Virus record (IMG/VR): IMGVR_UViG_2695420579_000008
DNA from: a virus
Lineage: Duplodnaviria > Heunggongvirae > Uroviricota > Caudoviricetes
Reading direction: 5' to 3' (one strand)
Length of the DNA stretch: 4,823 nt
The notes beneath the pieces were generated by a model that saw only the letters and a program-made list of their open reading frames with translations, was not told the origin of the DNA and did not search any database. This document shows, piece by piece, positions 3,078-3,265 of the stretch. The position numbers were made by a program, and so were the translations under genes. Positions within the stretch are counted from its first letter, which is position 1, and the number at the start of each line of letters is the position of its first letter.

Positions 3078-3110
3078 TATGCCAATTGTTTACTAAAAAT
3101 TATTAAAAAT

Positions 3111-3128
3111 GGGGCGTTGCAACGCCCC
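3111..3128 (-). terminator. Perfect 18-nt GC-rich palindrome GGGGCGTTGCAACGCCCC; candidate intrinsic terminator for minus-strand (nmpC) transcripts
   Basis: Seen directly in the sequence. On the minus strand the hairpin is followed by ATTTTTAATAATTTTT (complement of 3091-3110), a U-rich tract. On the plus strand it is followed by an A-rich tract, so it is a poor plus-strand terminator. Confidence 0.45.
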
Positions 3129-3216
3129 CAAAAATAAAGGGTAATATATAACAGAAGGTTTATATAGTTAGAAGCAAGGTTGTGCTCCTAAAGGAAGTGG
3201 CTTGAGGGAGCCACTT

Positions 3217-3256
3217 ATATGTTGGGGAGGCAAAGCCTCCCGCAACATATCTTTTA
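3217..3256 (+). terminator. Long imperfect hairpin (about 15 bp stem with one bulged G, AAA loop) followed by CTTTTAG; candidate tR'-like terminator downstream of quuD
   Basis: ATATGTTGGGGAGGC-AAA-GCCTCCCGCAACATAT with TTTT at 3252-3255. About 170 nt downstream of the quuD stop, analogous in position to lambda tR', which ends the short pR' transcript. The U-tract is only 4 nt. Confidence 0.4.
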
Positions 3257-3265
3257 GTAATCAAA

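Follow-up and report, generated by a model that had tools for sequence, protein, structure and literature searches.

The interval between quuD and the porin gene

In the prophage DNA considered here, 188 bp separate the stop codon of quuD from the stop codon of the convergent porin gene nmpC/lc (positions 3078-3265), and this short interval is packed with GC-rich hairpins. The question raised by the locus is which of the two neighbors these hairpins serve: the Q antiterminator encoded by quuD, for which the original prediction placed a candidate late promoter pR', Q-utilisation site and terminator tR' in this space, or the porin. The stretch of DNA that was analyzed (4,823 nucleotides, hereafter the window) belongs to an E. 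coli lambdoid prophage of the DLP12/PA-2 type and carries, from left to right, ybcN, ninE, ybcO, rusA, ylcG, quuD, the 188-bp interval, nmpC/lc and the pre-lysis region. The quuD gene (2694-3077, plus strand) encodes a 127-residue Q antiterminator. The nmpC/lc gene (3266-4348, minus strand) encodes a porin of 360 residues that begins with MKKLTV (Pfam Porin_1, E = 3.7e-153), in agreement with the 1083-nt annotation in PhiR34_1. A longer, 380-residue reading of this porin starts at 4408, 60 nt before the annotated MKKLTV start; it is probably an overextension, and the additional stretch (4349-4408) is probably not translated. The porin gene is intact in the window, whereas that of K-12 carries IS5.

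Of 5426 complete E. coli genomes, 2503 (~46%) contain the interval and its flanks, usually as a single copy, and many sequenced temperate phages do as well. Over positions 3040-3298, the K-12 sequence is about 97% identical to that of the window. A dispersed palindromic (REP-like) repeat was ruled out, based on a median of one place per genome and on the finding that all 77 viral contigs carrying the 18-mer of hairpin 1 are collinear quuD-interval-porin loci. When a degenerate form of the hairpin-2 pattern was searched for in one genome per species, matches were found only in E. coli and in one likely contaminant, which gives no cross-genus depth. A partial match that comprises quuD and only positions 3040-3141 corresponds to an IS5-type deletion and is uninformative about module boundaries.

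Read as minus-strand RNA, in the direction of porin transcription, the interval contains four conserved hairpins and one conserved unpaired stretch. Hairpin 3 (H3, 3217-3250) appears as an inverted repeat and in the predicted fold, with an 8-bp outer stem, one bulged base, a 7-bp inner stem and a 3-nt loop; on the plus strand the loop reads AAA, and the hairpin is followed by CTTTT. Hairpin 2 (H2, 3195-3216) is an inverted repeat in which 3195-3202 pairs with 3209-3216 to form an 8-bp stem, and its 6-nt loop, CCCUCA in the RNA, is invariant in all lineages. A further hairpin with a 9-bp stem (H4, 3168-3191) is seen in the fold; one of its pairs, G.U when read on the minus strand, would be mismatched (A.C) on the plus strand. 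At this position, the hairpins of other lineages differ in sequence. The conserved single-stranded core follows (3129-3167, CUAUAUAAACCUUCUGUUAUAUAUUACCCUUUAUUUUUG), with columns that are invariant across all lineages, including phage P7. Finally, hairpin 1 (H1, 3111-3128) and the adjoining U-run (3093-3110) form a Rho-independent terminator of the porin transcript (3093-3128, minus strand). In the window, H1 is a perfect 9 + 9 palindrome. This 18-nt form is specific to the allele of the window; in relatives the stem is 7 bp and the 4-nt loop varies (TTGAGA, TTGAAA, GTCA, ATAA).

The predicted folding energy of the minus-strand interval RNA is −63.2 kcal/mol, compared with −32.6 ± 3.7 kcal/mol for 200 shuffled sequences (z = −8.3), and the plus strand also folds beyond chance (z = −6.2); the near-palindromic hairpins fold equally well on that strand. 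The original prediction had listed three inverted repeats, at 3111-3128, 3195-3216 and 3217-3250. All three are found at these positions and exceed chance in the fold prediction that it had called for, and H4 is to be added to them. Its assignment of minus-strand terminator geometry to hairpin 1, and its view that the convergent porin transcript must end in this interval, are likewise borne out: a terminator scan of the interval returns hairpin 1 only, and only on the minus strand, where the T-run is located. A fifth, AT-rich hairpin (3145-3166) was rejected as a structure; it is absent from the predictions for the lambdoid relative L117 and for P7, and its one variant creates a C.A mismatch on the minus strand.

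Linkage of the hairpins to the porin gene and relation to IpeX

The distribution of the hairpins points to the porin as their owner. In the P1-like phages P7, JL22 and phi456, the porin gene and a homologous tail lie between ssb and odaA, and there is no Q gene. In P7, the outer stem of H3 reads ATATGCGGG/CCCGCATAT in place of ATATGTTG/CAACATAT, and the stem of H2 reads AGGTGGCA/TGCCACCT in place of AAGTGGCT/AGCCACTT, with two stem pairs altered on both sides and an identical loop. The P7 tail also has a different H4 hairpin at the same place, the conserved unpaired stretch and, at the place of hairpin 1, a terminator stem (GGGCGC/GCGCCC) with its T-run on the porin (minus) strand. In a third lambdoid lineage, represented by L117 and L135, the stems of H3 and H4 have been rewritten and still pair, as in the compensatory H3 stem GCTGAGAAG/CTTCTCAGC of L117. 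The order H3-H2-H4-core-terminator is seen in four lineages despite their differing stem sequences.

This conservation of pairing was quantified in an alignment of 16 sequences. The five-helix structure is paired in 96.6% of its cells, compared with 41-48% when the pairing partners are slid, and the unpaired cells belong mostly to the P7 rows, which MAFFT placed out of register. Nine pairs are altered on both sides, and none of 500 shuffles matches the observed values. Because the hairpins are shared with phages that lack Q, and because their stems covary, the comparison identifies them as a selected RNA structure that travels with the porin gene and not with Q. The minus strand is assigned as the transcribed one from the position of the T-run, the porin linkage and a modest 7:1 count of variable sites: among the 14 lambdoid rows of the alignment (the P7 rows, being out of register, were excluded), the stem cells that depart from Watson-Crick pairing comprise 12 that are G.U on the minus strand, spread over seven sites, and one that is A.C, at one site. 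The stem variants of hairpin 1 are G.U on the minus strand as well. Since the scan found no promoter-like site on the minus strand within the interval or just upstream of it, the RNA is most simply the tail of the porin transcript.

Considered together, the position, length, folding z-score and covariation of this tail indicate that the interval is very probably the structured 3' UTR of nmpC/lc, read from the minus strand and corresponding to the small RNA IpeX (3099-3265, about 163-167 nt). Counted from 3265, the first base past the porin stop codon, to where the U-run ends at 3103-3099, the tail measures 163-167 nt. In reviews, IpeX is described as a 167-nt RNA of DLP12 and PA-2 that is made from the porin promoter within the porin transcript and is then processed, and published genetics and reviews report that it lowers OmpC and OmpF post-transcriptionally. 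The identification is based on position, length and these secondary descriptions, and not on a published ipeX sequence; the K-12 RefSeq record used has no IpeX annotation. A comparison of the entire window with Rfam at E ≤ 1 gave no family match, and thus none to the covariance models of MicC (RF00121) and MicF (RF00033). The intergenic intervals of K-12 and PA-2 are identical at 189 of 189 positions. This identity agrees with what Castillo-Keller, Vuong and Misra (2006, J Bacteriol 188:576) reportedly state in their abstract, and the description of the ipeX locus follows that abstract and the reviews.

The RNA of the window lies between the nmpC/lc stop codon and a Rho-independent terminator, on the porin strand of a DLP12/PA-2-type prophage. 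It shares locus, strand and approximate length with IpeX of DLP12 and PA-2 and shows no structural difference from it; the window allele differs from K-12/PA-2 IpeX in the G.U pair of H4 and in the palindromic terminator loop. The hairpin feature is ordinary in kind and has already been described as IpeX. Small RNAs derived from 3' UTRs are a known class, with CpxQ, SroC, DapZ and MicL as examples. Like these, the RNA of the window ends at the same terminator as its parent mRNA, the scan assigns it no separate promoter, and a conserved unpaired seed directly precedes the terminator hairpin. Unlike these, the RNA rides on a phage accessory gene and would target paralogues of its parent gene. 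In the proposed course of events, transcription from the porin promoter would continue past the stop codon at 3266 into the stable hairpins H3, H2 and H4, cross the conserved unpaired core of ~40 nt and end at hairpin 1, which would be a Rho-independent terminator working in one direction. IpeX would owe its stability to the 5' hairpins and the terminator, and the tail may act either while attached to the porin mRNA or after release by a presumed processing step.

A locus found in ~46% of complete E. coli genomes encodes an RNA that is reported to silence the major porins of its host. Major porins serve as phage receptors and as entry routes for antibiotics.

Position of the late promoter

QuuD is assigned by homology to the Q21/933W family (Pfam PF06530, E = 3.5e-53; match to the Q21 structures 6JNX and 6P18) and not to that of phage 82; its sequence is 78% identical to the Q protein of a Stx1 phage and 29% identical to Q21. 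The Shiga-toxin phages carry the closest Q relatives, and the comparison with phage 82 that was originally suggested concerns a different family. In the relative L002, a block at 5619-5701, which corresponds to the window from 4772 onward, is 77-78% identical to the Q 3'-end DNA of hundreds of Shiga-toxin phages. The block consists of a −35 element TTTACG, a 16-nt spacer, a −10 element TATGCT (TATCAT in Shiga-toxin phages), GTTAAGAGTGGTTAC and a GC hairpin with a T-run, and it is uninterrupted in K-12 (TTTACGTACGTAAAAAATTGGTTATGCTGTTAAGAGTGG through to the terminator). In a Shiga-toxin phage, published dRNA-seq and Term-seq data place the PR' start 258 nt upstream of the 3' end of tR', and in the Stx1 phage the published PR' start falls 7-8 nt after the −10 element TATCAT.

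The window itself retains the upstream half of this promoter (4772-4792, plus strand), which was recognized by its homology to the Shiga-toxin-phage block and comprises the −35 element TTTACG inside the palindrome TTTACGTACGTAAA and the spacer. The TTTACG..CGTAAA motif occurs once in the window, at 4772-4785. Among the 198 loci fetched, 148 contain the pR' signature once per locus, and in the loci where its position was determined, it is found either past the porin or, in Shiga-toxin phages, at the Q 3' end, and never in the interval between Q and the porin. In mosaic relatives, homology stops just past the plus-strand terminator of the pR' block, and this terminator (L002 5678-5699), located after the porin, is the sole one on the plus strand from the end of quuD up to the holin gene. 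By homology to a mapped promoter, the late promoter thus sits downstream of the porin, from window position 4772 onward and 1.7 kb beyond the interval. The DLP12 Q protein reportedly acts on a promoter upstream of essD (a finding attributed to Rueggeberg et al. 2013), which would agree with a downstream pR'.

This arrangement is best explained by a moron cassette, composed of the porin gene, its upstream region and the IpeX tail, that was inserted in antisense orientation between Q and pR', with the consequence that the pR'/tR' cassette now lies downstream of the porin. The left joint of the porin cassette is located near codon 120 of Q (window about 3053, RLEMD): QuuD, the Shiga-toxin-phage Q and the Q protein of phage ev087 are alike up to codon 120 and unrelated beyond it, and the module that comes next differs among the three.

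The palindrome TTTACG(N0-2)CGTAAA covers the −35 element of pR' both in DLP12-type prophages (window 4772-4785) and in Shiga-toxin phages (L193 702-715), which makes it a candidate Q-binding element of the 933W/QuuD subfamily. This candidate is an inverted repeat, in contrast to the Q-binding element of phage 21, which is a direct repeat. The direct repeat TTATTTGTTG located after the porin was tried as a Q-binding site and rejected, as it is replaced in L117 and L135, where the TTTACG...TATGCT block is kept. Phage ev087 was set aside for defining the QuuD site; its Q protein is 88% identical, but the predicted recognition helix differs and the downstream cassette is unrelated.

In the window, the promoter is interrupted between its spacer and its −10 element. 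Similarity to relatives ends at 4792, and the sequence that follows (4793-4823) is multi-copy and is assigned to an end of IS1, the same end adjoining an IS1 transposase ORF in the relative L170. This IS1/pR' junction was found in no complete E. coli genome of the collection. Because the terminal repeat of IS1 splits pR', late and lysis expression from this promoter is probably disabled in the genome from which the window derives.

With the promoter so placed, two plus-strand roles for the interval can be weighed. That it is a Q-dependent late cassette, in which pR', a Q-binding site, a pause site and tR' share space with the porin terminator, is extremely unlikely. The interval does lie directly after Q, and in phage 21 the annotated −35 element, two 8-bp Q-binding subsites, −10 element, pause element and terminator all fit within 90 bp after Q; the −35 element of phage 21, however, begins 7 nt after the Q stop codon and has no counterpart in 3078-3265. 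An A-rich direct repeat (TTACTAAAAA/TTATTAAAAA, 3091-3110) could be taken for part of such a cassette, but it is accompanied by no −10 element, and the L117 and L179 lineages, both of which encode QuuD-type Q proteins, have not conserved it. The −10-like hexamers noted earlier (TAATAT/TATATA around 3142-3150 and TATAGT at 3163-3168) are present and, as had also been remarked, none can be paired with a −35 element: the scan finds no promoter-like site in 3078-3265 or in the identical interval of PhiR34_1. The CTTTT that follows hairpin 3 on the plus strand would suit a tR', yet the same hairpins accompany the porin in the Q-less P1-like phages, and the homologue of the mapped PR' is located after the porin. 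Since neither a promoter, a Q-binding element, a Q-strand terminator nor homology to PR' is found in the interval, its earlier designation as a pR'/qut/tR' zone is abandoned. The same CTTTT is relevant to the proposal that hairpin 3 is, in addition, a weak plus-strand terminator that limits read-through from quuD into porin antisense and makes the interval a two-way insulator. This proposal is unlikely, though less so than a late cassette. It is consistent with the strong stem followed by CUUUU (window) or CUUUUU (K-12 type), and a convergent layout would presumably benefit from insulation. Conversely, the plus-strand terminator geometry initially ascribed to hairpin 3 amounts to only four or five T residues after a C and failed the terminator scan, and the T-run is absent in P7 (TCTTACC) and degraded in L117. 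Early rightward transcripts of lambdoid phages are antiterminated by N and would ignore hairpin 3.

For annotation, these findings caution against placing pR' and tR' by default directly behind a lambdoid Q gene. In this prophage, Q and the promoter are kept 1.7 kb apart by an antisense porin cassette that brings its own regulatory tail, and pR' can be found instead by homology to PR' of Shiga-toxin phages. The short terminated transcripts that adjoin a Q gene of the same family, namely the pR'-QBE-SDPE-tR' unit of phage 21 and the PR'-derived StxS of Shiga-toxin phages, are plus-strand and promoter-driven, in contrast to the porin tail, and their homologue in the window is located beyond the porin, from 4772 onward.

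Several further features of this region were observed. In phage ev087, an apparent compact late cassette (L004 2973-3110) directly follows Q, with TTGCTG-17-TAATGT, TAGAAT and a strong plus-strand terminator, and is followed by the blc lipocalin accessory gene on the minus strand. The Stx1 phage carries, at about +25 to +50 of PR', a GC hairpin (L193 760-786) with seven U residues, and the published 3' end of tR' at +258 coincides with a second terminator (L193 965-994) and not with this first hairpin. In DLP12-type phages, the homologue of this first hairpin is the sole plus-strand terminator ahead of the holin gene. Finally, positions 4598-4693 of the window are a run of 96 N, opposite which relatives have only 42 nt (L002 5497-5538, L198 379-420); the direct repeat TTATTTGTTG(G) has its first copy within this 42-nt stretch.

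Predicted pairing of the unpaired core with host porin mRNAs

Two unpaired elements of the IpeX tail are the same in all lineages against a background of changing stems, the H2 loop CCCUCA and the core UGUUAU.UAUUACC.UUUA. This invariance amid rewritten stems argues for selection on their primary sequence. The core is complementary to the translation initiation region of ompC. One arm (3146-3160, 5'-AACCUUCUGUUAUAU-3') is complementary to ompC −21 to −7 over 15 bp, with one G.U pair, and covers GAGGG, and the other (3132-3140, 5'-CCUUUAUUU-3') is complementary to ompC −31 to −23 over 9 bp; the two arms are split by a 5-nt bulge. The duplex of the core alone with the ompC initiation region has a predicted energy of −26.7 kcal/mol, compared with −12.0 ± 2.9 kcal/mol for shuffled sequences (z = −5.1). 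In cofolds of the full-length RNA, the ddG is −21.0 kcal/mol with ompC, the target for which a core-shuffled control was computed (−6.9 ± 2.9 kcal/mol), −16.8 kcal/mol with ompF and −4.5 kcal/mol with the leader of the phage porin itself. The phage porin's own 5' region therefore appears untargeted, in agreement with its core-duplex z-scores of −0.2 to −1.3. For P7, the core duplex with ompF reaches −33.1 kcal/mol (z = −4.4), ompF being the best predicted partner of this P1-like version. The MicF-ompF duplex, computed in the same manner, has an energy of −27.4 kcal/mol and is comparable to that of the IpeX core. Core-only duplexes and full-context cofolds were used because full-length duplex folding against the porin leaders yielded unrealistic end-to-end duplexes and inconsistent z-scores.

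The core resembles the seeds of two known regulators of these mRNAs. It carries the MicC seed GUUAUAU/CCUUUAUU and faces the same site in the ompC leader (about −31 to −15), from which its pairing extends over the Shine-Dalgarno sequence, and its two arms jointly reproduce the seed GUUAUAUGCCUUUAUUG. The P7 core and the MicF seed share UUAUUUAUUACC. In contrast to MicC and MicF, the seed of IpeX is internal, just 5' of the terminator, instead of 5'-terminal, and is split by the bulge; MicC and MicF are also free-standing genes, whereas IpeX is a 3' UTR. Based on these predictions, the unpaired core of the tail would pair with the ribosome-binding region of ompC and, more weakly, with that of ompF, and would block translation as MicC and MicF do. 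It is tentatively proposed that IpeX may act by such direct antisense pairing through its core (3132-3160), as a phage-borne mimic of MicC and MicF; the case for this mode of action is reasonable but falls somewhat short of even. According to reviews, IpeX is not complementary to its targets, ompC included. The complementarity itself is a fact of the sequences, and the predicted pairing as a mode of action contradicts those reviews that are accessible.

The reading that competes with pairing is that the hairpins serve only to stabilize the 3' end of the porin mRNA and to terminate it, have no role in trans, and match ompC merely as a passive relic of an inverted porin 5' fragment. In favor of this explanation, the core, when read on the plus strand, is similar to the leader and start codon of a porin (in P7 it reads GGTAATAAATAACATGAAGTTAAA, compared with the ompC and ompF leaders), a likeness that could reflect ancestry and not function, and IpeX is possibly descended from an inverted porin 5' fragment. 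Stacked 3' hairpins also commonly shield mRNAs from exonucleases. A role restricted to stabilization is nevertheless quite improbable, as published genetics ascribe repression of OmpC and OmpF to IpeX, and the core and the H2 loop are invariant where the stems have been rewritten.

If direct pairing by IpeX is correct, it would supply the mechanism missing from the accessible IpeX literature and overturn the review statement on complementarity, and the phage would be copying the seed logic of MicC and MicF. Two corrections arise from this locus: the position of pR' in a prophage type that is widespread, and a model of IpeX pairing that can be tested. The 2006 IpeX abstract is said to report Hfq-independence for ompC only, and a long duplex with ompC and a short one with ompF would fit this description.

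A further complementarity is observed outside the core. The H2 loop CCCUCA (window 3203-3208, minus strand) is the exact complement of UGAGGG in the Shine-Dalgarno region of ompF and could provide a second contact.
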